Shown in pieces: positions 1 through 17,307 of a DNA stretch of 36,336 nucleotides. The stretch is from Methanothrix sp. (lineage in GTDB: Archaea; Halobacteriota; Methanosarcinia; Methanotrichales; Methanotrichaceae), in assembly GCA_037128175.1 (NCBI GenBank), contig JBAXWY010000028.1, forward strand, positions 1 to 36,336, written 5' to 3'. Both the position numbers and the translations under genes were made by a program. Each line of letters opens with the position of its first letter. Within the stretch, counting starts at the first letter, position 1. The notes beneath the pieces were generated by a model. That model saw only the letters and a program-made list of their open reading frames with translations. It was not told the origin of the DNA and did no database searches.

Positions 1-216
1 TCTGCTCCAGATGCTGCGTTGCTTGTGGTAATTTATCTTCTTCTTGCCCTCTGACCTGAGCACTCCCGAGATCTGCAGGACCTTGGCTATGCTTTGGCGA
101 GGAAGACCAAGCTCCAGGTAATCCACCTTCTCCTGACTCTCCAGGATCAAGAGCGAATCAGGATCAGCGCCAGCGTCCGCTAGCATTTGTAAGGTATCTT
201 TTGGCCTGAACGGCAT
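1..216 (-). CDS. Hypothetical protein, partial (runs off the window edge)
   Basis: Manual translation MPFRPKDTLQMLADAGADPDSLLILESQEK... is open to position 1; GAGGT RBS just upstream. Confidence 0.7.
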   Translation of the reverse strand, partial: MPFRPKDTLQMLADAGADPDSLLILESQEKVDYLELGLPRQSIAKVLQISGVLRSEGKKKINYHKQRSIWSR

Positions 217-224
217 AAAAACCT

Positions 225-419
225 CTATTTTCGGTTTGCTAATTCCAGGGCACGGTCCCAATCTTCCGGCGTTGGGGCTCGTGGGAGGTAGACCACAGAG
301 CCTGGAGCTTCGCCCATCTCCTCGGCGTAGATCTCCTCCAACCCTGGATCATCTGCCATCATGGCCAGCAACTCCCTGTCGAGCTTGGCCATCTCTTCAA
401 AGATCTTCTCTACTTCCAT
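225..419 (-). CDS. Small acidic hypothetical protein
   Basis: 64-aa ORF, tightly packed in the minus-strand operon. Confidence 0.6.
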   Translation of the reverse strand: MEVEKIFEEMAKLDRELLAMMADDPGLEEIYAEEMGEAPGSVVYLPRAPTPEDWDRALELANRK

Positions 420-441
420 CTCAAGAACATATCTGACTTCA

Positions 442-741
442 TCATTTATATATTATTCTGCTTCTCTTCTGTTCTTTCAACCTCCTGTAATGCTCTATCT
501 CCTGCCTTGATCTTCTCATGGGCTGGGACTTTTTGGGTTCAGTGCCGCAACTCGGACAATGTGGAACCTGTCGCCCGTCGAAAATTACAGCCTCCTGTTT
601 GCAGTGCGGACACATTCGAGGCCGGAAGAGGGTGATATCTTCAAGCTCAACTTTCTCGAAACGCCAGAAACGGCCAGCTTTGCCACCATGATGTTCAGTG
701 GCAAGTCTTGTCCCAGGCTCCCGGAGGGGCTCAAGAAACAT
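442..741 (-). CDS. Zinc-ribbon protein
   Basis: CPHC...CPSC motif pair and basic C-terminus; start uncertain. Confidence 0.65.
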   Translation of the reverse strand: MFLEPLREPGTRLATEHHGGKAGRFWRFEKVELEDITLFRPRMCPHCKQEAVIFDGRQVPHCPSCGTEPKKSQPMRRSRQEIEHYRRLKEQKRSRIIYK

Positions 742-846
742 CGATAGAGTCCTCCGAAAAGAGTCTGCTCACGAGCAAAGCCTGAGCATTATAAGGAACT
801 GTAATTCTTATTATATTTAAGGATTTGTAATAAGGGGATGTCCACT

Positions 847-1116
847 TCACGACTTAACCTCCAAAGCAATCTCAGATAGATCGGCATGGAGGGGCTCTAC
901 CTGTACCATGAAAGCCTTGGCCAGGTCCTCAATATCGCGATCAATCCCAGGAAGGTGCATCATGCGGGCCATCTCGGCCAGGATCTTGAAGCTCATCCGG
1001 AGGTCAGAGGGAAAGCTGTGCATGTCGTATTCGTCTTCCCTGAGGCGGCCTGTGATCTCTCCCAGAGCGGTCCTGGTGCTATCCAAGGCCGCGGAACAGA
1101 GGCGGCACATCCTCAA
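847..1116 (-). CDS. Hypothetical protein (N-terminal CxxC)
   Basis: TTG start overlaps the TGA of the upstream ORF; GGAGGTG RBS. Confidence 0.6.
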   Translation of the reverse strand: MRMCRLCSAALDSTRTALGEITGRLREDEYDMHSFPSDLRMSFKILAEMARMMHLPGIDRDIEDLAKAFMVQVEPLHADLSEIALEVKS

Positions 1117-1283
1117 TCCGCCACCTCCTGAATCTCGATAGTTACCAGAACACGCTTTCCTCTGGCCCCTTCCAGGAACTGGTTTGCGTCTCCGATGAGA
1201 GACCCCGGCATTTCCAGGCTGAAATGAACGGAGCCCATCATGCCAAAGCTGGTCAGGAGAGTCCCTGCAAACTCCTTTCTCAC
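1113..1283 (-). CDS. 56-aa hypothetical protein (not in ORF track)
   Basis: MRKEFAGTLLTSFGMMGSVHFSLEMPGSLIGDANQFLEGARGKRVLVTIEIQEVAD*; start and stop both overlap neighbouring ORFs. Confidence 0.55.
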   Translation of the reverse strand: MRKEFAGTLLTSFGMMGSVHFSLEMPGSLIGDANQFLEGARGKRVLVTIEIQEVAD

Positions 1284-1366
1284 GCGGTCGCCCCCATTAG
1301 AGGAGCCTTTTGCCTAAGCTTGAGATCCTCGGCGCTCAGGCTATTGACACCCACAATTTGGCACAT
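1280..1366 (-). CDS. 28-aa micro-ORF
   Basis: MCQIVGVNSLSAEDLKLRQKAPLMGATA*; GGTGA RBS; GTGA overlap with the next ORF. Confidence 0.35.
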   Translation of the reverse strand: MCQIVGVNSLSAEDLKLRQKAPLMGATA

Positions 1367-1734
1367 CTCGCTCTCACCACACGATTCTGCGATACATTTC
1401 CGGTGAAACGCAATCTATAGGCGCGAATTTGTTACCTGCCTAGCGCCCACACGCCAGACAGGAACGAAGACACATCTCACCGCATGACCGAACAAATCAC
1501 GACTATTTAAATATTGTAGCAGTATGGGGATAAACTAGGCCTTAGTTTTGATCAAGTAAAAATTGCTTACTTACGCGAAGCATAACGATTAATCAGATGG
1601 ATATTAGAGACGGTATCATGTCAATACATGGCAAAACAGTTTTATATTTTGCTGGCAAACGCCAAATAAGGAAATGTAATACGAATCATAGATAAGATAC
1701 CTGTTTACGGGGGATGAAGGCAGAAGAATTATGT

Positions 1735-1772
1735 CTTCGCGACGAAAGAGTATGGGCTCCTTCGTCGCAAAG
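1735..1772. other. Stem-loop
   Basis: GCGACGAA/TTCGTCGC perfect stem, extended by GAG/CTC inside and CTT/AAG outside. Confidence 0.5.
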
Positions 1773-2155
1773 TTGCCAACGCCAGTGGTGAGATGGCGAT
1801 GTGCCTACCGACCTGCCTGACATCCGGTGCCGAGACCTTGCAAGCCATGGCTAACCTAGAAGTAAAGAGGCAAGTCTGATGATATATGTAGAGCAACAAG
1901 ATAAAAGGCTTTGCGTTATAGCTTATTGCACAGCTACAAGCTTTTTTGGCCTTTCTCTAGCCCAAAATCAAACTGCGACGGAGCATCCGAGCAGCAAGCT
2001 GGAGGGAATTACATCCAAAATTAAAATAGAAAGATTGACACGGAGAGCTGCCCTTGCTCTCCGAGGCCTGTTGCGAGTCTTTGGGAGGTTCGCAAAACCA
2101 CAACGCGGTCCGGAGTTGCAATCATGAATCTCGGAACTGGCTGGGGTTTACAGGC

Positions 2156-3106
2156 ATGAATCTGGTTGTCGTCCCAGATATAAACTCTTTTCGCACTGCG
2201 CAGGAGCTTTCTTCATCTGAGCCGACACAGCTCAGGAGAACCATTGCAGAGCTCGAGGCCAGGATAATGGAACAAGATTCTCTTATTGCCCAGCAAAATG
2301 GGGGCATCGAGAACCTGGCCAACAGGCTCAAGCAGCGAGAGCTAGAGCTAATCGACATCAAGAAGACGCGCAGCAAAACGAGCCAAGGGCTCAATACTCC
2401 TGAGAGCTTCGAGCACACCCTGGAAAGAGATCGGTTGGTGAAGGCCAACAAGAACATGGAGGCCCTGATCGAAGAATTCGAAGAGGGCTTCTGGACTCTC
2501 TTATCCGAGCAGCGCCAGGGGCTGGATGAATGCCTGAAGTCCCTTGGGCAGCTCCCCGCCACCCCCGAGACGAAGAGCCTCTACGCCCATATCAAGAAGG
2601 AGTGGCAAGCCATCGAGGCGGCAAAGAAACGAGGCACAATATCTCCTGTGAACGCCCTGCGGCAATTGGCCGACCTGGAACGGGCCGTTGTAACATTCAT
2701 CCTGTGCAGGCCCAGGCTGAGCCTGACCACTGTCGATACCTTGCGGGCCGAGATCCTCCTGGAGGCCTTTACAACAGACCGCAAATTGAAACAGCTTACC
2801 ACTAACGATTCTATAAGGACCATCTCCGCCAAAGAGGAGAGGAAGATCTACAGGGAGCAGGCCCTGCGAGCCATGCGCCGCGCTGCTGCGCTCTTCCCGG
2901 ATCAGGTCAATTTTGAGAAGAAGGGCAAGGCGGCCAGGATCATCAAGATCAACGAGGGATTCGGCGCGAATTTGGCCCAACGATGCATGATAACAGTTTG
3001 TTACGCAATTTGTTATTGTCACAGTTTGTTACAATCTTCCTGCGAGCTGCCGGAAGGTGTGGTTTGTACATTAGGGGGAATCTTCAGGGATACAGTGGCC
3101 TTTTGA
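2156..3106 (+). CDS. Coiled-coil protein with C-terminal wHTH-like domain; paralog of 4114..4782
   Basis: Long ORF; ATG 2156 preferred over TTG 2054; N-terminal heptads; C-terminal motif aligns with the 4114 ORF. Confidence 0.75.
   Translation: MNLVVVPDINSFRTAQELSSSEPTQLRRTIAELEARIMEQDSLIAQQNGGIENLANRLKQRELELIDIKKTRSKTSQGLNTPESFEHTLERDRLVKANKNMEALIEEFEEGFWTLLSEQRQGLDECLKSLGQLPATPETKSLYAHIKKEWQAIEAAKKRGTISPVNALRQLADLERAVVTFILCRPRLSLTTVDTLRAEILLEAFTTDRKLKQLTTNDSIRTISAKEERKIYREQALRAMRRAAALFPDQVNFEKKGKAARIIKINEGFGANLAQRCMITVCYAICYCHSLLQSSCELPEGVVCTLGGIFRDTVAF
2993..3032. repeat. Iteron-like direct repeats ACAGTTTGTTAC
   Basis: Exact copies at 2993-3004 and 3021-3032, degenerate copy at 3005-3016, inverted-like GTAACAAAC near 3220. 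Confidence 0.5.
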
Positions 3107-3450
3107 AAGAAGTTAATCAAAGAAGATGACATGAAACAGGATGTTATGTTAGTTTACGGTTTATTTGTCTCGGGGTCTTAGGTCGGGGAGTCTGAGGGGT
3201 CTAGAGAGAAACCGAGGATGTAACAAACGGTTACAATAGTGAGTCGCGAAATAATGGCCTCAATGAAAACGTCTATCTGATAAGATGAGCCGAAAGAAAA
3301 GACATTTTAGCCCCTTAAAATTCAGATCCTGATATTCATTTAACCCAACTTTGTAAACAAGAGCGAATATAATAAATAAAATTTATTAGATAATCTTCAT
3401 AGAAAAACATAGAATACGCTTAAATACGCAAAATTAGGAAACACTTGTGT

Positions 3451-3612
3451 ATGGGTGTAGCGAAGGTAAAAGTTACGGCATCGATCAAAGGAGACCTTGT
3501 CGATTGGGTTGATAAAGAAGTGGACAAGAGTCGCTTTGCCAGCAGAACTCATGCTGTGGAATATGCCTTAACTAAGCTTAAAGAAGCCGACAATCTAGCG
3601 CTTCCAAACTAG
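3451..3612 (+). CDS. Ribbon-helix-helix (CopG-like) regulator, 53 aa (not in ORF track)
   Basis: MGVAKVKVTASIKGDLVDWVDKEVDKSRFASRTHAVEYALTKLKEADNLALPN*; TTAAATA box about 25 nt upstream. Confidence 0.85.
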   Translation: MGVAKVKVTASIKGDLVDWVDKEVDKSRFASRTHAVEYALTKLKEADNLALPN

Positions 3613-4113
3613 CATTCAAACCTAGATCGAGCTTTAAGCATAACCCAGAAGAATACAGACGATCGTATAGAGAAATAGGAATAAAACTTAGATAAAATAT
3701 ATTTCAGCCCAGGGCTGGTACCCCTGGACCGAAAAACCCCTAAGAATGGAATTCAATTATGATAGAGATAGCTTTAGCTGGGATATATAGTTTTGCATCA
3801 GAACCGCCCAATCACAATCTACTAAAGGATTTTCTCAACAAAATTAAAATATTTTCTTATAAAGTCGCGAGTCTCGTAGAGAATATTCGTTTAATTAAAA
3901 TTATTTGTAATCAATAATAGCTTGTAAAAATTGTTTCCGGCCCAGGTGTTACGAGCACCTGGACTGGGATACTCCGAGCAGGAGCGTTCGTGTATGGTAA
4001 ATTTAGCCTTGGCTAGAATAAATAGCTTTGCATCCGAGCCTGATACAGGTTTTCCTCCAGGCAATGTAGCGTCGCACGAAAATGTATCCTCAAGGTTTGC
4101 GGTGGCGGTCTGA

Positions 4114-4782
4114 ATGGACATCTTCCAAACAGACGAGATCCTCGAGATCCCTGTCTCCGAGATTCAAGCCTTATTCAAGGACTTGATCCAGGTCTACGAT
4201 ACCTTGAACGAGGTCCTCAAGGATGCCGGAATCCTGCGAGGCCGTGAGCTGGCCGAGATGAATACTAAGGCTAGCCGTGCCGTTGAAGCCGAGAAATCGC
4301 CTGTTGGAAAGCTCGTTCTTCTCAATGCCTACATCAAAAAGGAAATCTGGCATATTCACAATGCTTTAAAGACGAGGCCCGCCTCTGCGCCCACAGAGGA
4401 AGGAAAAATCAGGCAAGCAATCACAAAGATTCAGTTGAGAGCTTCCGCTATTGTAGAGCATGTAAAGACCATTGCCCAGGGAAGGAAGGAAGTCGCCTTC
4501 AACTCCTGCCAGGCCCGAGACTTCCTATCAGGCAGAGAGGGAAAACCGCCCAGTCGTCGCGACACAATCAGAGCTCTGAAGAGAGCTGAGAAGATCTGTC
4601 CGGCCTTGGCCTGCGACCATACTCCCAATGATGGACGCCAAACCACAAGGTTAACTGCAACCGTTGAAGACTTAAAACAATCTGATATTATAAAAGTGGA
4701 GCGTGACTGTGACACAAGGCAACGGTCGCGAATGGATGAGCTTAGGGTTATCTTCTTTAAAGAGCCAGGAAGCCACGTTTAA
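4114..4782 (+). CDS. Helical protein with C-terminal wHTH-like domain; paralog of 2156..3106
   Basis: 222-aa ORF; LSGREGKPPSRRDTIRALKRA aligns with ISAKEERKIYREQALRAMRRA. Confidence 0.75.
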   Translation: MDIFQTDEILEIPVSEIQALFKDLIQVYDTLNEVLKDAGILRGRELAEMNTKASRAVEAEKSPVGKLVLLNAYIKKEIWHIHNALKTRPASAPTEEGKIRQAITKIQLRASAIVEHVKTIAQGRKEVAFNSCQARDFLSGREGKPPSRRDTIRALKRAEKICPALACDHTPNDGRQTTRLTATVEDLKQSDIIKVERDCDTRQRSRMDELRVIFFKEPGSHV

Positions 4783-5018
4783 ATTGTCATGATAACGCCC
4801 TAAAAAGTACACAAAAATTTATTCTGTCGGGTAGTAGAGAGATTAGTTAGCTAGCTTTAGTTTACGGTATAGCAACGAATCAAGGCAGAATCAATTATAA
4901 TAGCAATTTAATATTATTAAATCAAGAAGATAGATCTTCACTTCAGACCGTTGCCAAAGGCAACGCAATATACAGTAGAAAAATGTTTTTATAGAACCTG
5001 AGATACTGATGATAGATA

Positions 5019-5329
5019 ATGAGGAGAAGTCCGGAGAAGATCACAGAAGATATCCTATCCTAAGAATCTGTACAGAGGCAACTGGCAAGACCAAAATCGT
5101 TTATCAGTGCAATCTTAATTTCCATACCGTAAATATACATCTTCAACGATTGATTAATGCCAGTCTCCTCAAATCCTCTGGGTCCGAAGATAACCCATCT
5201 TATAGGACTACCGCGAAGGGAATAGAAGTCCTGGGGCACATCAATGTACTCAGAGATCTTCTTACCGCAGTCCCCGGCTCTCAGGGTAGACTTGTTGTTC
5301 CTGAAGGTCAGGAAGATCAAGAGCAGTGA
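5019..5329 (+). pseudogene. ArnR1-like archaeal winged-helix regulator, frameshifted
   Basis: Removing one copy of the TATCC duplication (5051-5060) restores MRRSPEKITEDILRICTEATGKTKIVYQCNLNF...YRTTAKG. Confidence 0.75.
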
Positions 5330-5467
5330 GGTAAATGAATCATATTGTGTAGATCATCATTACCATCACGCTTTTATGTAATTCGCCTTTTCCTTTTGTG
5401 TAAAAATGGTTTAATGCTATCCTTTTCCGGCCAAACTACTTATTCTCACAGGGCCAAAGGGTATAGT

Positions 5468-5716
5468 ATGGCAGGAGTTCTTGAGCGGTTAATGGGTCCT
5501 CAGAATCAGAGGCGTTTAGTGCAGCGTTCCGGAAAGGCTCCCTGGGTGGATTCCAAGGTCCTGGAGCTCCAAACGGCCATGGAGATCCTGGCCGAGGTCT
5601 TCTGCATCAGGATCTCGGATGTGGAGGAGATGCTCCGAGAGCGCAGTAAGGTGGAGATCCAATCATGCAGGGGGGAAGTTGCCCTTTGGCCAGAGAGCTT
5701 CTGTCTGGCTGATTAG
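5468..5716 (+). CDS. Hypothetical protein (MAGVLERLM...)
   Basis: 82-aa ORF; related N-terminal fragment at 12973. Confidence 0.6.
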   Translation: MAGVLERLMGPQNQRRLVQRSGKAPWVDSKVLELQTAMEILAEVFCIRISDVEEMLRERSKVEIQSCRGEVALWPESFCLAD

Positions 5717-5768
5717 GGCTCCATCTCACACTTTTCTAGATCAAGGCGATCTCTTTCGTCTCTTAAAT

Positions 5769-6731
5769 TCACTGCTTCCCATTTCCTTCATTTATTCGCT
5801 TCAATATCTTCTCGCACAGCTCCGGGTAGGCTTCCTTGAGCGCGTTCTCCACCATCTCCCGGGCCTTGGTGGATTTGCGGTATTGCAGGAGTGTCGTCTC
5901 CCTGCGGTTTAATAGCATCAACTGCTGGCTTTCCAGGACGGCAAGCAGCAGCGGGGAGTAGAGTGATATCTTGGGCGACTTCAGGGCCTGAGCGACCGCC
6001 TGGTCTATTATGTCATCTGTCATGACTCCCGACTCTTGAGTCTCGTTTCTGGACTTTTTCATCTCTTCTTGACTCTGGGGTCTGGTCTCCTGAATCTGGG
6101 CTGTTGACTCCGGAGTCATGACTCTGGACTCTGGAAGACTGACGCTTGACTCAAGTCTCACATATTTCTCTTCCGGTGCAGTAATTCCCGACTCTGGAGT
6201 CTTGACTCCCGACTCCTGACTCTGTGTGCTGGGGTCTTGAAGCTTGATGCTTGATTCCTGACTCTGCACTCTGTAATCCTGAGTCTTGACTCCGGACTCC
6301 TGAACCCTGATGCTTGACTCCTGTTTCACATCTTTCTCTTCCGGTGCAGTTATTCCCGACTCTTGACTCCTGACTCTTGAATCCTGACTCAAGGTTCTGG
6401 GGTCTTGAAGCCTGTGCCCTGCTTCTTGCTTCTTAAATCCCGACTCTGGAGTCGTGACTTTTGCTTCTTGAAGCCTGACGTTTGTTTCATGTTTCACATC
6501 TCTTTCTTCAGCGGCAATAATTTCTAAATTCTGAGTCGTGACTCCTGACTCCTGACTCTGGGTGCCGGGGTCTTGAAGCTGGACGCTCTTGTCTTGACTC
6601 TCCTCTCCTGGCTCCTGAGTCATGACTCCTGACTCTTGAAGCGTGCCTTCTGACTCAGGTTTCTTGCTTTTTGGCTCTATGCCTTTCAGCATGAAGTCAA
6701 GCCCTTTCGTCATGCGATCTCCTGGGCTCAT
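5769..6731 (-). CDS. ParA partner: heptapeptide-repeat linker plus probable RHH-like C-terminal DNA-binding domain
   Basis: ATGA overlap with the parA stop; N-terminal KGLDFML; QESGVxT repeats; C-terminal strand-helix-helix pattern. Confidence 0.75.
   Translation of the reverse strand: MSPGDRMTKGLDFMLKGIEPKSKKPESEGTLQESGVMTQEPGEESQDKSVQLQDPGTQSQESGVTTQNLEIIAAEERDVKHETNVRLQEAKVTTPESGFKKQEAGHRLQDPRTLSQDSRVRSQESGITAPEEKDVKQESSIRVQESGVKTQDYRVQSQESSIKLQDPSTQSQESGVKTPESGITAPEEKYVRLESSVSLPESRVMTPESTAQIQETRPQSQEEMKKSRNETQESGVMTDDIIDQAVAQALKSPKISLYSPLLLAVLESQQLMLLNRRETTLLQYRKSTKAREMVENALKEAYPELCEKILKRINEGNGKQ
6024..6660. repeat. Intragenic 7-bp GANTCnn satellite with 168-bp higher-order unit
   Basis: e.g. 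gactctg gagtctt gactccc gactcct gactctg; register kept from 6071 to about 6590; TTCCGGTGCAGT at 6171 and 6339. Confidence 0.9.
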
Positions 6732-7468
6732 GCCGCCACCTCATCTGCCAGATCTTTGTAGCCCAGTGCCCCTGAGCAGGATGGATCATAGAGACATATT
6801 GGCAGGCCCTGGGACGGAGCCTCCACCAGCCGCACATTCTCGGGAATAACGACTTTGAAGACGGCATCTCCCAATAGGCTCCTGATCTTGGTGGACACCT
6901 CTTCGGTTATCTTCCGTCTGTTGTCGCACATGGTGAGAAGGTATCTTCTCTCCGGCTGATAGCCCAGTTCATCAAGCTCATCCAGCATTCTGATGAGTGT
7001 CTTCAGTCCTTCTACTGCGAAGAATTCCACTTGGACTGGGACAATAACCCTATCACTGGCCACAAGTGCGTTCAGGGTCATGTTGCCCAGGGCTGGGGGC
7101 GTGTCGATGATTACATAATCGTAGTTCAACGCCTGGACCTTCTTTCTGAGGCGTTTCTCACGGCCCACTTTGCTGGTTAGGACCGCATCGGCCTCAACGA
7201 GGTCGTTATTTGTGGGGGCGATATCAAGCCCTTTTACGGTCGTGGGTATGATGATGTCCTCCAGCTTGGTCCTATCCATCATGACCTCGTTCATGTTCTT
7301 GGGCAGGTTGTCTTTGTCAATGCCAAGATGGGTGGTCGAAGAGCCCTGTGGGTCGAGGTCTATCAGCAGAACATGAGAACCTCGCAGGGCGAGATATGCG
7401 GCCAGATTGACGGTGGTCGTGGTCTTGCCGCACCCACCCTTTTGGTTGGCTATTGCTATTACCTCCAT
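6728..7468 (-). CDS. parA: ParA/Soj family ATPase
   Basis: ANQKGGCGKTTT deviant Walker A, IDLDPQG, YVIIDTPP, ENVRLVEAPSQGLP. Confidence 0.96.
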   Translation of the reverse strand: MEVIAIANQKGGCGKTTTTVNLAAYLALRGSHVLLIDLDPQGSSTTHLGIDKDNLPKNMNEVMMDRTKLEDIIIPTTVKGLDIAPTNNDLVEADAVLTSKVGREKRLRKKVQALNYDYVIIDTPPALGNMTLNALVASDRVIVPVQVEFFAVEGLKTLIRMLDELDELGYQPERRYLLTMCDNRRKITEEVSTKIRSLLGDAVFKVVIPENVRLVEAPSQGLPICLYDPSCSGALGYKDLADEVAA

Positions 7469-7508
7469 AACTGTAAACTCTTCATGAATGTCTATAAGGA
7501 TTGTGCTT

Positions 7509-7585
7509 GACTCTGGAGTCTGGTATCTGGATGCAAGGGTCAGGATGCTGGAGTCAGGAGTACGGAGTCATGACTCTGGATTCAG
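7509..7585. repeat. 11 tandem heptamers upstream of parA (candidate parS/operator)
   Basis: gactctg gagtctg gtatctg gatgcaa gggtcag gatgctg gagtcag gagtacg gagtcat gactctg gattcag. Confidence 0.8.
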
Positions 7586-7963
7586 GCCTCTCTTGCAGGC
7601 CATACGGGAGAGCCTGCAGCCAGGCCAGGTGTGGCTCTTCCCCGGCCGGAGCTCCGGACATCTGTGCACCAAGACGGTGCTCAGGACCATAGACCGCCTG
7701 GCAGAAGAGGCCGGGATCCAGGAGGTTTCGCCCAGGCAGAAGCTCTCCCGGAAGAAGGTCACGCCCCACATCCTCAGGCACAGCCATGTGGTGAATGCGC
7801 TCATGGCCGGCGTGCCGGTGCCCATGATTCAGATAGCCGGGTGGGGCACAAGAGGCTGTCTACGACGGAGATTTACGCTACCGTGGCGCCAGCGCTGGTG
7901 AAGGAGGCTTACGATCTGCATGGATTCGGACCGGTGCTCACCAGAGTAAAGCCGACCTGTTAG
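7586..7963 (+). pseudogene. Tyrosine recombinase C-terminal remnant, frameshifted
   Basis: WLFPGR...VTPHILRHSH in one frame, VGHKRLSTTEIY in another; N-terminal half absent. Confidence 0.88.
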
Positions 7964-8016: not shown

Positions 8017-11000
8017 TTACTCGACAATATCCTCGTCCGGCGAGAGTTCAATGGTGATTCCCTCGTCCGGCGAGGTCATGTTCCAGTCGGGAGTCTGCCA
8101 GCCACCGTACCTGGTGGTCTTGGGCGCCACCCCGCTGCTCCACACCTCAACTCTGGCCGCAGCATCGGCTGTGTCATAACCGGCTGCATCCACGGCAGTT
8201 GCATCCAGATGCACAGAGTTGACATAACTGTCATCCATGGTTGCCCGGGCCAGGTATTGGATAGTTGCCACACCACCTGGCTGCAGGTCGGGGACAATCC
8301 ATTGCAGGAACTGGCCCTCCTGGCGGCTCGGTTCGGGTGAGGCGCTCAGGAATGTCAGGCCGGCTGGCAGCATGTCGGTCAACGTGGCGGCCAAGGTGCT
8401 GTCGGCATTATTGCGCACTTCGATGGTGAAATGGACCAGCGTGGGATCGGTGGCATCGAGCACTGCCCTCTTGTCCAGCCTAACCTCGGACAGGCAGCAG
8501 GGCAGCCCGGCGGATTCTAATGCCGCATAAGCCGCTCCTGATACGCAGGCGTCTTTGTTCATGCCGCAAACCATGACGCGGTTGACAATGTTGCCGGGCG
8601 CGTACTCGGTCAAGTTCAGTTCCAGTTCTATCTCAATGGTGTTCCCTATACCGAGATGAACTAAAGTCCAGTTCGCATCGGTCTTGGAGATGCTTGCAGG
8701 CCTGATGGACGAGCCTATGTACTCCGTGCCTGGCGGGAAGATGTCCCGGACATTTATGGGTGCCAGAGCCACGTTTCCGTCATTGGTTATGGTTATGACG
8801 TACTTGGCTACCTGGGCATTGGTCTTGTTGAACCACCTGGTGGTCATGTTGCCTTCCTTCTTCACGGTTATGTGAGGTCGGTCGTATCTGGACACGCCGG
8901 TGAGAAGCACCTTCCGTCTGATGTCATATTGGCCTACATAGCGCTCCTCGTTATCGACCTTGGTTGCCTGGTTCTCGCCTATTGATTTTACCTCGAAGTC
9001 GGCCATGCCGCTGAAGCTGGCGTTGGTCTTCATCTCGTTGAGGCCGGATGCAATGGTCTCTTTCTTCAGGCTATCCAGCGAAGAGAATCTCTCGCTGATG
9101 TAGGAAGCTGGAGGCGAGCTGTTGCCAGTTTTTGTGACAGGAATGCCGCAGTTGCTGCTATCCTTGAATATATCGCCGCCAGCCAGGTAGCCGCTCCTGG
9201 ACCACATGCCTTCGCTCCATTTCATGTTCTGGCTGACGCCAAATCTCGGTGTGTAGTTGTAGCTGGTGGGGCCGTGGACAAGGGAGATGTCCTTGGCTAT
9301 GAAGTTGGATGGAGTATCGATGATCTCATCGCTCTGGTAGGAGCCGGTGCCCGACTCGTAAGTCCTCTGGCTGCCCTGCACGCGCTTGTTAACGTCCACG
9401 TAGCCGTAGCCAGTCACTGATTTGTTGGACCGGACGCTGCTGCCGTATTCATCCACATTCTCGAATACCCTGAAGCTGCCCACGTAGTCCTCGCCCGCTT
9501 CATAAACCGGCCTGGACCTGGGATGAGCATCTGGGCTTTGCTTCTTCAGAACTCCGATATGGCCGCTGCCCTCGAACTCGACCTCAGTCTTCATGGTCGA
9601 ACCGTTTTCGTCCAACTCGATGGACCGGTCCTTATCGATCTTGCTGGCAAAGGTGTACTCCTCGTTCATGGTAGCACCGGTTATTGTGTTGATGCCTTTG
9701 GACTTCTCAGTCCATTTGGTGACATAACCGATTGATCGGTCCTGAGGCAAAGCGAAGGTGGTTGGCTTATGTGTTGCAGAGAGGCTTGTGACTGATCTGA
9801 TGGACTTGTTCTCCGTGCGAATCCTTGTCAACTCCTCGCTCTCATAAGTGCCGCTGCCAAACTCGCGTCTCCTGAGTTCCGTTCCCGGATCGACTATGCT
9901 GCTAGATGCGCAGCTGGACATGGTCTCTACCAGATCGGCTTTGGCGTAGGCGCAGTTGGTTATGGAATCAGGACCCTGGTGAGTGTCATAGTCATTATGG
10001 ACGTTGACGAAACCAACTCCCTGGACTCCCTGAGACATGTCGTAATTGATATCAACTATCGGAACGCGCACCACCAGTTCCACGTAGAAGCACTGGCCGG
10101 GGTAAAGGGCGCCAATGTACCAGGTGAGATTGGTGGATGAAGGCGCGGGGTAGACCGAGACCAGCTCGACGCCTTTGGGTAGGACATCCCATAGGGTGAC
10201 ATTGGTGAAGGAAATCCCATCGGGACAGGGATTGCAGAGATTGATGGTGTAGTTGATGTCTTCACCCCTATGGACTGTGGGCTTGTCTGCGGTCTTGGTC
10301 AATATGAGATTGCAAGGTGCATCATTATAGAAGTCCAGATTCGGAACGCTCTCGCTGTATCCTAGAATTATATTGTAGCAACCATCGGTCTCAATCTGGG
10401 TGCCATCCTTAATGACCTGGGTCCATCCATCTTTTAGCTCTTCACAGACCGTGTATGAGTCGGCGGGCAGGCCGCAGACCTGCCAGTAGCCTGTGTCATT
10501 GGTAACGGTAGTCAATTGGTCCGTGACGTTACTGACCACGATGGTCCAACCAGCCAGACCCTTGCCGGTGCTGTTCTCGAAATTGTGGCCGGAGATGCAA
10601 ATATTCTTCGATTCCACGCTTGCCGTGGTGCTGGAGTTGACTTCATCGCCGTGCTCGGGCTTGGCCTTCACATCCACGCGGTTGGTCAATGTGCCGTAGA
10701 CTGATCCGTCGATTGTAGCTTTAATCCAGAGAGTGTGGGATGCGCCGTCGGCCAGCGGGCCGACGTCGGTCCAGTTGATGTACTTGCCGCTGCTCACCCC
10801 TCCAGCAGAAGAGTCGTAGGCGAGGCCAGCCGGCAATTTGTCGCTCACGAAGACATGCGGTAGCATGGCTTCGCCATTGTTGGTCACAGTCAAGGTGAAG
10901 TCGATCAGGGCTCCTGTGAGACCAAATGCTGGATCAGCTGTTTTGGTGACTGAGATCTTGGCTTCCTGGGCCTGAACAGAAGCTGTGGCATAATCGGTGA

Positions 11001-12162
11001 CAATCCCTCCATTTGCGGGCCTGGCCTCCACATCCACGCGGTTGGTCAGAGTCTGGACGCCTGAGACCGGGCCGTCGATGCGGGCCACGATTTGAAGCGA
11101 CTTGCTAGCCCCTGAACTAAAGGGGCCGATGTCGCTCCAGTAAACGTTCTGGCCGCTGTGAGTGCCGCCAGATGAAGATGCGATGTAGCTCATGCCAACC
11201 GGCAGAAGATCGCTGACGAAGACATGAGGCAGCGAAGAGCTGCCGCTATTGATAACGTTCAAGGTGAAGGTTACCGGAGTGCCCTCTGAACCAAATGCTG
11301 GATCAGCTGTTTTGGTGACTGAGATCTTGGCTTCCTGGGCCTGAACAGAAGCTGTGGCATAATCGGTGACAATCCCTCCATTTGCGGGCCTGGCTTCCAC
11401 ATCCACGCGGTTGGTCAGAGTCTGGACGCCTAAGACCGAGCCGTCGATGCGGGCCACCATCATAAGCCACTTTCTGTCTCCTGAAAGCAAGGGGCCGATG
11501 TCGCTCCAGACAACGGTCTGGCCGCTGGGAGTGCCGCCAGATGAAGATGCGATGTAGCTCATGCCAGCCGGCAGAAGATCGCTGACGAAGACATGAGGCA
11601 GGTCAGAGCTGCCGCTATTGATAACGTTCAAGGTGAAGGTAACATCCGTACCTGGCGAGCCGACTGTAGGATAGGCTGTTTTGATGACTGAGATCTTGGC
11701 TTCCTGGGCCTGAACAGAAGCTGTGGCATAATCGGTGACAATCCCTCCATTTGCGGGCCTGGCCTCCACATCCACGCGGTTGGTCAGAGTCTGGACGCCT
11801 GAGACCGGGCCGTCGATGCGGGCCACGATTTGAAGCGACTTGCTAGCCCCTGAACTAAAGGGGCCGATGTCGCTCCAGTAAACGTTCTGGCCGCTGTGAG
11901 TGCCGCCAGATGAAGATGCGATGTAGCTCATGCCAACCGGCAGAAGATCGCTGACGAAGACATGAGGCAGCGAAGAGCTGCCGCTATTGATAACGTTCAA
12001 GGTGAAGGTTACCGAAGTGCCCTCTGAACCAAATGCTGGATCAGCTGTTTTGGTGACTGATATCTTTGCTTCCTGGGCCTGAACAGAACAGTTCACGAGC
12101 AGCAGAATGAGAATGAATAGACCTTTCAGTAAGGTCCCCTGTTTATGATGATCATAAGCCAT
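8017..12162 (-). CDS. Large secreted/surface protein with multiple DUF11 domains and an SdrD-B/Cna-like domain
   Basis: Signal peptide; repeated VTKTA...FTLNVINSG...VSDLLP; GLAGWTI...TNDTGYW. Confidence 0.9.
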   Translation of the reverse strand: MAYDHHKQGTLLKGLFILILLLVNCSVQAQEAKISVTKTADPAFGSEGTSVTFTLNVINSGSSSLPHVFVSDLLPVGMSYIASSSGGTHSGQNVYWSDIGPFSSGASKSLQIVARIDGPVSGVQTLTNRVDVEARPANGGIVTDYATASVQAQEAKISVIKTAYPTVGSPGTDVTFTLNVINSGSSDLPHVFVSDLLPAGMSYIASSSGGTPSGQTVVWSDIGPLLSGDRKWLMMVARIDGSVLGVQTLTNRVDVEARPANGGIVTDYATASVQAQEAKISVTKTADPAFGSEGTPVTFTLNVINSGSSSLPHVFVSDLLPVGMSYIASSSGGTHSGQNVYWSDIGPFSSGASKSLQIVARIDGPVSGVQTLTNRVDVEARPANGGIVTDYATASVQAQEAKISVTKTADPAFGLTGALIDFTLTVTNNGEAMLPHVFVSDKLPAGLAYDSSAGGVSSGKYINWTDVGPLADGASHTLWIKATIDGSVYGTLTNRVDVKAKPEHGDEVNSSTTASVESKNICISGHNFENSTGKGLAGWTIVVSNVTDQLTTVTNDTGYWQVCGLPADSYTVCEELKDGWTQVIKDGTQIETDGCYNIILGYSESVPNLDFYNDAPCNLILTKTADKPTVHRGEDINYTINLCNPCPDGISFTNVTLWDVLPKGVELVSVYPAPSSTNLTWYIGALYPGQCFYVELVVRVPIVDINYDMSQGVQGVGFVNVHNDYDTHQGPDSITNCAYAKADLVETMSSCASSSIVDPGTELRRREFGSGTYESEELTRIRTENKSIRSVTSLSATHKPTTFALPQDRSIGYVTKWTEKSKGINTITGATMNEEYTFASKIDKDRSIELDENGSTMKTEVEFEGSGHIGVLKKQSPDAHPRSRPVYEAGEDYVGSFRVFENVDEYGSSVRSNKSVTGYGYVDVNKRVQGSQRTYESGTGSYQSDEIIDTPSNFIAKDISLVHGPTSYNYTPRFGVSQNMKWSEGMWSRSGYLAGGDIFKDSSNCGIPVTKTGNSSPPASYISERFSSLDSLKKETIASGLNEMKTNASFSGMADFEVKSIGENQATKVDNEERYVGQYDIRRKVLLTGVSRYDRPHITVKKEGNMTTRWFNKTNAQVAKYVITITNDGNVALAPINVRDIFPPGTEYIGSSIRPASISKTDANWTLVHLGIGNTIEIELELNLTEYAPGNIVNRVMVCGMNKDACVSGAAYAALESAGLPCCLSEVRLDKRAVLDATDPTLVHFTIEVRNNADSTLAATLTDMLPAGLTFLSASPEPSRQEGQFLQWIVPDLQPGGVATIQYLARATMDDSYVNSVHLDATAVDAAGYDTADAAARVEVWSSGVAPKTTRYGGWQTPDWNMTSPDEGITIELSPDEDIVE
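10963..12087 (-). repeat. Three 369-bp tandem DUF11-coding repeats
   Basis: TTCCTGGGCCTGAACAGAA at 10963, 11332, 11701 and 12070; units 1 and 3 nearly identical. Confidence 0.92.
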
Positions 12163-13828: not shown

Positions 13829-14236
13829 TCAAGCGGTAATCTTGGTCTTGGCGATGTACTTGATAAGCTCCGAGCCGATCCTGGCCTTCTTCTGAATCTG
13901 ATCGGCCACATCATCCGCGGATGCGCCGCTTGCTGCCAGGGAGCGAATCTCCTCAAGCGTGCTGTCTTCCACGGTGAAGTACTCATCTAGGTCTTTTCTG
14001 TGGCCCCACACGTCGCCTTCCAGCATCTCAATGCCCTGCATGTCCAGGAATACCTGGATGGCACTGGACATGGTCTTGCGGTAGGATGGCGGGACCTGAA
14101 TCATTCTCAGCCTGGGGCATCTCTGCATCAGGTTAAGGAAATCTACATTGCTGGCCCTGAAGGCCAGGTGAACTGTCTTCTCATTTGGATTCAAATTGGG
14201 GATCTCATTTCTGGCGCTGATTACTCTAAGTCTCAT
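13829..14236 (-). CDS. DUF1699 family protein
   Basis: MRLRVISARNEIPNLNPNEKTVHLAFRASN...GDVWGHRKDLDEY; start set by alignment with 16900..17307. Confidence 0.92.
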   Translation of the reverse strand: MRLRVISARNEIPNLNPNEKTVHLAFRASNVDFLNLMQRCPRLRMIQVPPSYRKTMSSAIQVFLDMQGIEMLEGDVWGHRKDLDEYFTVEDSTLEEIRSLAASGASADDVADQIQKKARIGSELIKYIAKTKITA

Positions 14237-14270
14237 TTTAGCACTCCAGACCCTAAGATGCATTCCCTAA

Positions 14271-16899: not shown

Positions 16900-17307
16900 T
16901 TAAGCGGTGATCTTGCTCTTGGCGATGTACTTGATGAGGTCCGGACCGAGTCTGGCCCTCTTCTGAACCTGGCTGGCCAGATCCTCTATGGCGGTGCCGC
17001 TGGCCACCAGGGAGCTGATCTCCACTAAGGTGCTGTCATCCACGGTGAAGTACTCGTCCAGATCCTTTCTGTGGCCCCAAACATCTCCTTCCAATAGCTC
17101 AATGCCCTGCATGTTCAGGAATACCTGGATGGCATTGGACATGGTCTTGTGGTAGGACGGGGGTACCTGAATCATTCGCAACCTGGGGCATCTTTGCATC
17201 AAGCTGAGGAAGTCTACATTGCTGGCGCGAAAAGCCAGGTGAACCATCTTCTCATTGGGATTGAGATTTGGAATCTCATTTTTTGAGCTAACTACTCTAA
17301 GTCTCAT
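16900..17307 (-). CDS. DUF1699 family protein
   Basis: Close paralog of 13829..14236; GGAG RBS. Confidence 0.92.
   Translation of the reverse strand: MRLRVVSSKNEIPNLNPNEKMVHLAFRASNVDFLSLMQRCPRLRMIQVPPSYHKTMSNAIQVFLNMQGIELLEGDVWGHRKDLDEYFTVDDSTLVEISSLVASGTAIEDLASQVQKRARLGPDLIKYIAKSKITA

Follow-up and report, generated by a model that had tools for sequence, protein, structure and literature searches.

A SegAB-type partition cassette of Methanothrix with candidate centromere heptads upstream of segA and inside segB

The gene pair at positions 5769-7468 (minus strand) of a Methanothrix sp. contig (JBAXWY010000028.1; the window, i.e., the whole stretch of DNA that was analysed, comprises 36,336 nucleotides) is a partition cassette of the SegAB type. 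From the sequence comparisons described below it is regarded as probable that this cassette, which is situated at a provirus-like edge, uses a heptad as the cognate site of its SegB protein, and that an array of this heptad inside segB is part of the centromere and at the same time encodes a disordered spacer.

Results

A ParA-type ATPase gene overlaps with a gene for a SegB homologue

The original prediction for this region had been a partition system composed of a gene for a ParA/Soj ATPase and an overlapping partner gene. This was confirmed, and the partner was recognized as a homologue of archaeal SegB. As such, the 320-aa protein would be the centromere binder itself, and not an adaptor, the role that it had been assigned. 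The cassette and its surroundings comprise the following features:

5769-6731, minus strand: segB homologue, 320 aa; its start overlaps the segA stop codon via ATGA (6728-6731)
5772-6029, minus strand: C-terminal SegB-type ribbon-helix-helix (RHH) domain, predicted to bind DNA, residues 235-320, with the strand PKISLYS
6024-6665, minus strand: linker-coding heptad array, encoding residues 23-236, which are predicted to be disordered
6687-6707, minus strand: N-terminal motif KGLDFML, residues 9-15, candidate SegA-stimulating peptide
6728-7468, minus strand: segA/parA, 246 aa, Soj-type ATPase with a deviant Walker A motif
7492-7498, minus strand: TATA-like box CTTATAG (TTATAG at 7492-7497), putative promoter element 27 nt before the segA ATG
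7509-7585, no strand assigned: upstream array, 11 heptads in mixed orientation (plus-strand reading GAsTCnn), candidate segS centromere/operator
7596-7963, plus strand: tyrosine-integrase gene, 3′ half only, with a frameshift; it begins 11 nt past the upstream array

The segB frame is open throughout the array, and the other two frames of the same strand contain no open reading frame of at least 50 aa there. SegA matched the Pfam families AAA_31 (E 4.8e-56) and CbiA (E 5.7e-24), contains KGGCGKT close to its N-terminus, and is the sole AAA_31 match of the genome at E<=1e-20. Its closest solved relatives are ParA 8RAY (1e-55) and the Soj protein of T. thermophilus 1WCV (2.5e-51); Soj structures were matched with E-values of 1e-44 to 1e-55, while SegA of Saccharolobus solfataricus (Sso; 7DUT) reached only 9e-19. 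A ParA match adjoins the segB-type gene in 30 of 44 related loci. The other 14 comprise five fragments or contig ends and nine loci from other families of the class.

The SegB assignment was obtained with a profile of 26 family members, which was compared with the PDB. Two SegB structures were retrieved with E-values of 1.5e-12 (7DUV) and 8.1e-12 (7DV2), and the next match had an E-value of 0.12. This significance comes from the family profile only, as the SegB homologue as a single sequence matched SegB with a non-significant E-value of 0.42. When the structural model was compared with 48,161 chains using VIA-align, the best two matches were SegB (Z 7.7 and 7.5, next 4.6); they cover 74-76 residues, and the top match has an rmsd of 2.6 Å with 74/74 residues aligned. 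The top three Foldseek matches of the C-terminal domain were also SegB (probability.93-.99, at weak E-values of 0.07). The AF2 pLDDT of the domain was 77.9 when it was modelled alone and >90 within the full-length model. The solved structure of SegB is an RHH (PMC8682754), and the domain is regarded as RHH-like because of its homology to this protein. The C-terminal RHH-like binder that had been proposed was thus borne out by SegB homology and structure prediction, and its binding to DNA is predicted from the sequence.

The published SegB signature (K/R-D/N-P-K/R-I-G/T-V/L-W-S-Y/P-P/E; bioRxiv 10.1101/2025.04.15.649018) is matched by the window protein (K-S-P-K-I-S-L-Y-S-P-L) at 7/11 positions. 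The lysine and the serine that correspond to K52 and S57 of Sso SegB are retained, and W56 is replaced by tyrosine. Relatives with NPRISLWSP or KPKLGVYSP fit the signature better than the window protein. A scan of 26 members revealed no Pfam or NCBIfam family for the C-terminal domain. An identity as ParB (HTH, CTP-dependent clamp) was considered and rejected: 0/26 members matched ParB families, no ParB/Srx or HTH parS-binding domain was matched, and the window SegB had no Pfam match at E<=0.1 except for a chance match to Pectinesterase. The omega protein of pSM19035, with which the gene product had initially been compared, gave way to SegB as the closest family; omega and ParG are absent from the eight profile matches at E<=10 and from the fold matches listed. 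The SegB homologue may work like the type Ib RHH binders omega and ParG, which is an analogy in the mode of action and not a membership supported by sequence or profile.

At its N-terminus, KGLDFML had been suggested to be a motif of the ParA-stimulating type. This was corroborated insofar as the family has a conserved motif of this pattern at the same position, i.e., basic-G-[LIMV]-D-x-[LIMF]-[LF], with RLGRGLEALLS in one distant member. AF2 predicts a helix at residues 5-14. The function may be assumed by analogy with Sso SegB, the first 21 residues of which are required for the stimulation of SegA (PMC8682754).

Two arrays of the same heptad flank segA

The linker-coding array contains 87 heptad slots in one register at 6057-6665, with the consensus aaGAsTC, and three shifted heptads at 6024-6044. 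The predicted register was therefore correct, while the predicted number of roughly 75 units was somewhat too low. In the region 6000-6700, 34 of 37 GANTC sequences are in one phase (6071-6652) and three at 6024-6038 are offset by 2 nt; none is present between 6653 and 7508. The expected autocorrelation peak at 7 was found both in this region (identity 0.52) and at 7500-7590 (0.56-0.59). The identities at lags 14, 21 and 168 were 0.49, 0.50 and 0.63 in the region 6000-6700, compared to a mean of 0.27 and a background value of 0.24 at lag 3; at 7500-7590 the lag-14 identity was 0.61. The high value at lag 168 reflects the superperiod that had been noticed before, and TRF also reported a period of 168 nt (3.3 copies, 72% matches, 6106-6663). 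AF2 predicts no structure for SegB residues 20-235 (pLDDT <50), and orthologues differ by linker indels of 28 and 21 aa, which are multiples of 7 aa. Both observations are in accordance with the proposal of an expandable array that would encode a disordered linker.

In the upstream array, six of 11 heptads have an exact GANTC, and all six (at 7509-7583) are in one phase. As predicted, the eleven heptads lie just upstream of the putative segA TATA box, with a distance of 10 nt to the nearest one. The TATA-like string is identical in sequence and spacing in the related loci L008, L011, L013, L014 and L016, and the upstream array is also conserved in orthologous loci. At least five GANTC in the same phase within 84 nt occur at just two places of the 2,964,426-base genome, namely the linker array and the upstream array, and elsewhere in the genome GASTC pairs with a spacing of 7 nt were not in excess (3 pairs versus 1-7 at neighbouring spacings). 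The possibility that the upstream array is a simple duplicate of a gene fragment had been raised in the original prediction, and it was rejected: the best ungapped identity to the gene array was 0.62-0.66 (77 nt), which is lower than the internal mean of 0.76.

The heptad core GA-S-TC coincides with the part of the published Sulfolobus SegB site that is invariant. ChIP with Sso SegB revealed TCTAGA-S-TCTAGA with the "almost invariant core AGA g/c TCT" (PMC12284271), and the Saci segS site consists of three [AGNGTNN] heptads (bioRxiv 10.1101/2025.04.15.649018). The exact Sso consensus TCTAGACTCTAGAG is present upstream of segA in the related locus L012. A scan of a collection of genome contigs with the 17-nt Sso S1 site yielded only four chance bacterial matches.

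The linker is constrained at the level of the DNA

The sequence of the linker is constrained as DNA and not as a series of codons. The pattern is a DNA-level one, because the identity at lag 7 is about the same as at lag 21 and lag 3 is at background. Since the 7-nt unit and the 3-nt codon have no common factor, successive heptads run through all three frames and yield the peptide repeat QESGVxT, whose proposed equivalence to three heptads was verified. The conservation of the seven heptad columns is.60,.47,.85,.78,.44,.62 and.78, and agreement with the consensus varies little between the three codon positions (.70/.64/.61).

In a comparison with six orthologues, 330/1536 sites differed in core columns and 455/1152 in the other columns, and a DNA-level alignment gave very similar numbers (337/1564 and 449/1173). 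The frequency of changes in core bases is thus half of that in spacer bases, irrespective of the codon position, with the p-values being overstated because the orthologues share ancestry. In the C-terminal domain, the differences are distributed over the codon positions as usual (.08/.04/.29). Codons that complete a core are enriched in the linker, i.e., GTC accounts for 10/15 valines (genome.28), ACT for 8/17 threonines (genome.18), and AGT for 8/27 serines (genome.08), where the repeat units are non-independent samples. Coding does shape the array, as 14, 14 and 6 of the 29 heptads in each codon phase have an exact GANTC, so that one phase has fewer than the other two. Concerted evolution within the array can mimic a conservation of the core.

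The upstream and the intragenic units co-vary

In 28 related loci all stretches with a lag-7 identity of at least 0.5 are located either just upstream of segA or within segB, and both arrays are present in 11 of these loci. Co-variation was analysed with 15 lineages with C-terminal domains less than 70% identical, and the top hexamers of each linker were compared with the upstream 160 nt. The linker hexamers matched best to their own upstream region in 9/15 lineages, none of 20,000 permutations reached the observed sum, and control regions were at about 0. The suggested co-variation of upstream and intragenic units was thus found. No shared motif was seen in 6/15 lineages (L018/L044, L020, L021, L046, L048; L047 not the row maximum).

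The motif types of the lineages are GASTC, TCTAGAS, TTACTAA, CTTAAG, CATGAGTC and GAAGTwC, and in another class TGATAAG is common to both arrays. Even where the linker has been turned over completely, the motif is retained. On the peptide level, the pattern (E/D)S(G/R)V also occurs in distant family members. The distribution of the cassette is patchy (28/104 genomes of the family), and relatives were found neither among the PLSDB plasmids nor in the GenBank phage set.

Neighbourhood and transcription

The cassette adjoins provirus-like genes. The integrase remnant matches PF00589 (E 7.6e-8) only at profile positions 77-151 of 172, and this flank is kept in L008, L014 and L016, but not in L011. 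The portal protein of a related provirus had no match in G000 (one query; the window contig ends inside the homologous region). Contigs from RNA libraries, derived from two runs of a single study, cover no more than 6656-6865, 6887-7093 and 6806-7061, and this does not suffice for a claim on expression. The assembled contigs aligned with the arrays contain no indel or joint in the parts that they cover; the uncovered parts are uninformative.

Discussion

A model for the SegAB cassette

In the reading that is regarded as probable, SegB would consist of three parts, i.e., a short SegA-activating N-terminal peptide, a spacer of about 215 residues that is disordered, and an RHH domain at the C-terminus for dimerisation and DNA binding. 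Its cognate site would be the 7-bp unit with the core GA(G/C)TC. The eleven units upstream of the TATA box would serve as centromere and, probably, as autoregulatory operator, and about 87 further units of the same heptad would encode the SegB spacer, with the core of the heptad being the conserved entity, not the peptide. SegB dimers could cooperatively coat both arrays, one on either side of segA, and in this case the segB gene would itself be part of the centromere. Slippage in steps of 21 nt would alter the number of sites and the length of the spacer together. The family membership, the two arrays and their uniqueness in the genome, the DNA-level constraint and the co-variation across lineages are established by the sequence comparisons; the binding of SegB to the heptads, the occupancy of the intragenic copies in vivo, and the autoregulation are inferred.

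A wider generalization is put forward tentatively, and we would sooner bet against it than for it. One stretch of DNA might act as centromere, as operator-linked binding platform and as coding sequence, and in every lineage segS heptads might be both the raw material and the lasting template of the SegB middle part, and this would include the 42-nt repeats of Metallosphaera. In that case, slippage by 21 nt might adjust the number of sites jointly with how far the SegA-activating N-terminus can reach, and SegB bound to its own reading frame might feed back on its synthesis.

Alternative explanations

The most serious alternative, which is nevertheless thought to be unlikely, is that the intragenic array is a historical by-product. 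Centromere repeats would have been captured in frame, have slipped, and have undergone gene conversion, the intragenic copies would be unbound and devoid of a DNA-level function, and selection would only act on the length of a flexible spacer. The two arrays indeed share whole units including the spacer bases, e.g., a 15-nt unit in L009 and an identical 18-nt string in the window, which is explained equally well by copying or gene conversion and by selection for binding. The turnover of the linker is also fast: its divergence between orthologues is 1.5-3.8 times that of the C-terminal domain, and the linkers of L012 and L017 cannot be aligned. Moreover, slippage has been named as the source of long SegB insertions (bioRxiv 10.1101/2025.04.15.649018). 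However, the cores but not the spacers are conserved, whether units of the array or orthologues are compared, and this applies to all codon positions; the motif also outlives its linker. In addition, a SegB protein that binds to the upstream units would be expected to bind to intact copies at a distance of 0.8 kb as well.

A selection at the peptide level is clearly less probable still. Repeats of the QESGVxT type would be functional by multivalent contacts, condensation or a beta-solenoid, the DNA period would be their shadow, and the upstream array would be unrelated or a derived fragment. The lag-7 identity is not below the lag-21 identity, conservation follows the heptad column instead of the codon position, and AF2 finds no structure in the linker, all of which argues against this explanation. 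It also does not account for the presence of the motif in non-coding upstream DNA in mixed orientation, where it changes together with the linker motif in 9/15 lineages. A beta-helix has been predicted for the Metallosphaera SegB repeats (PMC12284271), and the recurrence of (E/D)S(G/R)V in distant members as well as the codon phase with fewer exact cores would be compatible with a peptide-level contribution. Lastly, it is very improbable that the heptads serve something other than SegB, e.g., as a methylation or restriction target (GANTC is palindromic) or in an mRNA structure formed by inverted units: the linker RNA folds better than shuffled sequences (z -2.8 and -6.5; 0/100 shuffles as stable, for each half), but such additional pairing arises automatically when GAGTC and GACTC units are mixed, the motif varies by lineage while the architecture stays tied to segAB, and the core is the experimentally defined SegB core.

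Implications and comparison with known systems

To our knowledge, SegAB is the only segregation machine of the chromosome type that has been studied in archaea. The present results broaden the known range of SegB, which now includes a further archaeal phylum as well as provirus-like elements. Long and variable SegB insertions are left unexplained in the parts covered of two recent papers (slippage is named in bioRxiv 10.1101/2025.04.15.649018); if such insertions consist of the protein's own binding sites, this would give them an origin and a testable function, namely a centromere that expands and contracts in parallel with the spacer of the protein bound to it. This would also be an unusually clear overlap of a DNA-level and a protein-level code in one reading frame. 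The pairs of motif and beta-strand (GASTC, TCTAGAS, CTTAAG, TTACTAA, TGATAAG) form a natural series that could serve for decoding how this RHH family reads DNA.

The closest counterparts are the SegAB systems of the Sulfolobales (Saccharolobus solfataricus, Sulfolobus acidocaldarius), in which a ParA-type ATPase gene also overlaps the gene for an archaea-specific RHH binder (PMC8682754, PMC12284271, bioRxiv 10.1101/2025.04.15.649018). There, the N-terminus of SegB activates the ATPase, as is predicted for the window protein, and sites lie just upstream of segA, as do the candidate sites of the window (PMC8682754, PMC12284271). Like the window heptads, the site AGA-S-TCT is intrinsically repetitive with a unit of 7 bp (two copies of TCTAGAS; three of [AGNGTNN]), and in S. 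acidocaldarius some SegB sites are within segAB (bioRxiv 10.1101/2025.04.15.649018; PMC12284271). In contrast, the window has about 100 heptads instead of two to three, mostly inside the spacer-coding part of segB, no dispersed chromosomal sites were seen in its genome, and its ATPase resembles bacterial Soj more closely than Sso SegA. The host belongs to a phylum other than that of the Sulfolobales, the distribution is patchy, and the neighbours are provirus-like; the main texts of PMC12284271 and bioRxiv 10.1101/2025.04.15.649018 name no member of its class. Metallosphaera has long SegB proteins with 5-13 tandem 14-aa repeats, which are likewise inserted between a conserved N-terminus and the RHH and vary in length by species; 14 aa equal 42 nt or six heptads. 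In the passages covered these repeats are viewed at the protein level (beta-helix) or put down to G[A]n slippage, with no link to the segS motif.

Bacterial systems share single aspects. The omega/delta system of pSM19035 has an RHH dimer on contiguous 7-bp arrays that are both centromere and operator, and at least four contiguous heptads are needed for the activation of ParA (PMC9499535). However, the arrays bound by omega are situated between genes, the omega protein lacks a long spacer, and no sequence relationship was detected (profile E<=10). In ParG/ParF with parH of TP228, the RHH binder stimulates the ATPase by means of its flexible N-terminal tail, and the centromere consists of short degenerate boxes (PMC3130281); the RHH domains of SegB and ParG superimpose with an rmsd of 0.7 Å (PMC8682754). 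Unlike the window, parH has tetramer boxes with AT-rich spacers, which are only upstream, and the protein is small.

Centromere sites inside the gene for their own binder have a bacterial parallel: in 1998, Lin and Grossman reportedly described a parS site within parB/spo0J. This is said to be a single 16-bp site in a region coding for a folded domain, and the protein to be a ParB of the HTH/CTPase type. Fast-evolving tandem DNA repeats also add disordered segments to proteins encoded by archaeal mobile elements, the Borgs (PMC9879509). The abstract of that study describes no link between a repeat unit and a cognate DNA site, whereas the unit of the window is not a multiple of three and matches the regulatory array.

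A SegB-type partner of a ParA ATPase

The ParA gene had been described as translationally coupled to a 320-aa gene, and indeed the reading frame of the 246-aa ParA overlaps its neighbor by ATGA. The features of the region are:

5009-5329: wHTH gene (HTH_45), downstream of segB, within a provirus-collinear region
5345-5716: ORF of 123 aa, downstream of segB, within the same region
5769-6731 (-): segB homologue, with a heptad-encoded linker
6728-7468 (-): segA (parA)
7509-7585: upstream array of 11 heptads
7596-7963 (+): 3' half of a tyrosine-integrase gene, starting 11 nt beyond the upstream array

The ATPase is a Soj-type ParA (AAA_31 match 4.8e-56) and the sole AAA_31 gene at E<=1e-20 in the genome. 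Comparison with solved structures yielded 1e-44 to 1e-55 for Soj/ParA and 9e-19 for Sso SegA (7DUT). The partner protein matched no Pfam or NCBIfam family. A search of 1.84 billion representative proteins with its last 86 residues retrieved 27 relatives of 75-322 aa, in all of which the domain is C-terminal. A profile of 26 relatives matched the SegB structures of Saccharolobus solfataricus (7DUV 1.5e-12, 7DV2 8.1e-12, next match 0.12); for the window protein as a single sequence the match was not significant (E 0.42). The AF2 model of the C-terminal domain (C-domain, residues 235-320; pLDDT 77.9) contains a helix, the extended segment PKISLYS and further helices. Its top two matches among 48,161 chains were SegB (Z 7.7, rmsd 2.6 Å, 74/74 residues; Z 7.5; next 4.6), and Foldseek gave the same ranking with weak E-values. 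The ribbon-helix-helix-like binder predicted at the C-terminus is thus homologous to SegB by profile and fold.

SegB is described as an archaea-specific ribbon-helix-helix protein that binds the centromere in the SegAB system; SegA stimulation requires its residues 1-21, and DNA binding requires Lys52 of the strand (PMC8682754). The window SegB retains the matching Lys and Ser, and it fits the published signature at 7 of 11 positions. Its N-terminal KGLDFML sits at the conserved family motif basic-G-[LIMV]-D-x-[LIMF]-[LF], and the corresponding sequence in a member of another class is RLGRGLEALLS. Motifs of this type presumably resemble the ParA-activating N-terminus of bacterial ParB.

Among the related loci (L numbers), L015, L018, L044, L022, L037 and L050 encode two tandem SegB-type C-domains per chain, as found also in proteins P0020 and P0021, which would make a single-chain pseudo-dimer of a ribbon-helix-helix fold. 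In other families of the class, the SegB-like genes of L035-L041, L049 and L050 have a different N-terminus, e.g., ESASEKLRRRLEE. No ParA gene similar to that of the window was found within about 1.5 kb of them, and their products may have another partner.

Of the 104 other genomes of the family, 28 contain segB by profile (15/58 in the genus); the counts in the rest of the class are 3/20 and 6/177 for two families and 0/90 for five others, and a sample of the phylum added only two matches. The distribution is patchy and accessory.

Two heptad arrays

Autocorrelation was expected to peak at 7 nt in both stretches, and lag-7 identities of 0.52 (6000-6700) and 0.56 (7500-7590) were obtained. In the former, lags 14, 21 and 168 gave 0.49, 0.50 and 0.63 (mean 0.27), while lag 3 was at background (0.24); in the latter, lag 14 gave 0.61. 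The proposed 168-nt superperiod was recovered by TRF (period 168 nt, 3.3 copies, 72% matches). Of the 37 GANTC in 6000-6700, 34 share a single phase and span 6071-6652, and the final three (6024-6038) are off by 2 nt. The upstream stretch has all 6 of its GANTC in one phase, and parA contains none. The common register of the gene array stands, and the number of units is somewhat higher than the roughly 75 noted, with 87 heptad slots of the consensus aaGAsTC at 6057-6665.

A scan of the entire 2.96-Mb assembly detected at least five same-phase GANTC within 84 nt in these two arrays only. Paired GASTC at 7-nt spacing showed no excess elsewhere in the genome, a pattern more in keeping with a self-contained module than with a chromosome organiser. 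Separately, GASTC pairs whose starts are 11 nt apart occur 23 times in the genome, versus 1-7 times at other distances from 5 to 21, and must be carried by some other repeated element.

The upstream array stops 10 nt short of TTATAG, itself 27 nt ahead of the segA ATG, and the arrangement is kept in five orthologous loci; therefore, a protein bound there would be in a position to repress the promoter.

Constraint on the linker

The pattern had been assigned to the DNA level, and in agreement lag-7 identity is not below that of lag 21 and a lag-3 signal is absent. Conservation of the heptad columns is.60.47.85.78.44.62.78, and the consensus match at codon positions 1/2/3 is nearly equal (.70/.64/.61). 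In a comparison with six orthologues, differences fall at 330/1536 sites of the four core columns and at 455/1152 sites of the three remaining columns (337/1564 and 449/1173 in a DNA-level alignment), values for which units and orthologues are non-independent samples, the repeat alignment favours cores, and concerted evolution may mimic core conservation. Differences by codon position are.24/.29/.35 in the linker versus.08/.04/.29 in the C-domain. Among synonymous codons, those completing the core are over-represented, with the same non-independence: GTC for 10/15 Val (genome.28), ACT for 8/17 Thr (.18), AGT for 8/27 Ser (.08), GGA for 8/11 Gly and AGA for 7/11 Arg. Coding leaves a mark too, as the codon phases hold 14, 14 and 6 of 29 exact cores, and in the lineage with TCTAGAS units a heptad that would give an in-frame TAG is altered to TCGAGAG. 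Judged from these comparisons, the constraint appears to act on DNA and not on codons.

The array is open in one frame, with no ORF of at least 50 aa in the other two frames of the strand, and the indels between orthologue linkers are clean, measuring 28 and 21 aa. In line with the proposed disorder, the AF2 model lacks secondary structure over residues 20-235, where pLDDT is <50, against >90 in the C-domain. For the linker mRNA (6060-6680, -), predicted folding is much stronger than for shuffled sequences (z -2.8 and -6.5), owing to pairing between GAGTC and GACTC units, and this might influence translation or stability.

Co-variation of the arrays

In 28 related loci (about 3.3 kb each), all stretches with lag-7 identity of at least 0.5 lie directly upstream of segA or within segB, and 11 loci have both arrays. 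It had been proposed to determine whether the units co-vary. Loci with no recognisable segA start, <100 nt upstream or a linker <12 residues were left out, and the 24 usable loci formed 15 lineages (C-domain <70% identical). For each lineage, the eight commonest linker hexamers were scored in the 160-nt region preceding the segA of every lineage. Co-variation was evident: in 9/15 lineages the linker matched its own upstream region best, the observed sum was reached by 0/20,000 permutations, and control regions (downstream of segB, within segA, farther upstream) scored about 0.

Table. Motifs shared by linker and upstream region
Window group: GASTC with AG/AA/CA spacers
L012, L017: TCTAGAS
L006: TTACTAA
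L015, L045, L047: CTTAAG
L042: CATGAGTC
L034: GAAGTwC
L009: 15-nt unit, found in both arrays

The six remaining lineages were L018/L044, L020, L021, L046 and L048, which lack a shared motif, and L047, which was not the row maximum. Outside the formal test, an independent member of another class has TGATAAG in both linker and upstream region. The strand residues vary with the motif (PKISLYS, PKLGVYS, PRIGIYS, RRMIGVWS, PRLSTWS, PRISAYS).

The main rival explanation is that capture and gene conversion made the arrays alike, without function; the two arrays of the window have an 18-nt string in common. A plain copy of a gene piece was ruled out for the upstream array, since its best ungapped identity (0.62-0.66) is lower than the internal mean of the gene array (0.76).

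At one locus (L005, G002:C2), the ParA gene adjoining segB is split across two frames and a KGGxGK(S/T) motif was not found in it, while both arrays are retained; this is a decaying cassette.

Probable provirus context

Positions 1-6411 and the beginning of an IMG/VR record (G718; L058/L059) are collinear, with 77-81% identity; the record is classed as provirus (CheckV completeness 29%) and further on encodes a terminase large subunit, an SPP1-type portal, a minor capsid protein and a capsid protein. Therefore, a head-tailed temperate virus or related element is the probable present or former carrier of the cassette. The collinear region also includes ORFs of 222 and 350 aa downstream of segB. 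With one query, the rest of the element was not found in the assembly; the homologous region runs off the end of the contig. The integrase remnant is frameshifted near its end, with the GHKRLSTTEIY part in another frame; this flank recurs in three same-genus relatives and is absent from the related locus L011. Elsewhere, the window encodes a 1381-aa DUF11-repeat surface-type protein with three near-identical N-terminal repeats of about 145 aa (8017-12162, -) and two DUF1699 paralogues (13829-14263 and 16900-17307).

Discussion

The locus is best read as a putative SegAB-type partition cassette whose centromere repeat doubles as coding material of the binder's disordered spacer. There is good support for SegB family membership and for the comparative pattern; we infer that SegB occupies the intragenic array, along with any feedback that this might have on expression.

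A literature search retrieved no description of an intragenic centromere array encoding the linker of its binder. Long SegBs with repeat insertions appear in two 2025 papers (PMC12284271; bioRxiv 10.1101/2025.04.15.649018), treated as protein domains or G[A]n slippage; the main texts neither link the insertions to the binding motif nor name a member of the window's class, which the supplements could hold.

The published site sequences, which include TCTAGA-S-TCTAGA from ChIP of S. solfataricus SegB (PMC12284271) and the three [AGNGTNN] repeats of S. acidocaldarius segS (bioRxiv 10.1101/2025.04.15.649018), indicate that the SegB site is a 7-bp repeat with the GA-S-TC core (S = G or C) of the window. 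The window heptad thus appears to be a variant form of the known site, and L012 has an exact TCTAGACTCTAGAG directly upstream of its segA. Unlike the 14-aa repeats of Metallosphaera SegB, for which a beta-helix is predicted (PMC12284271), the window linker has no structure in its AF2 model.
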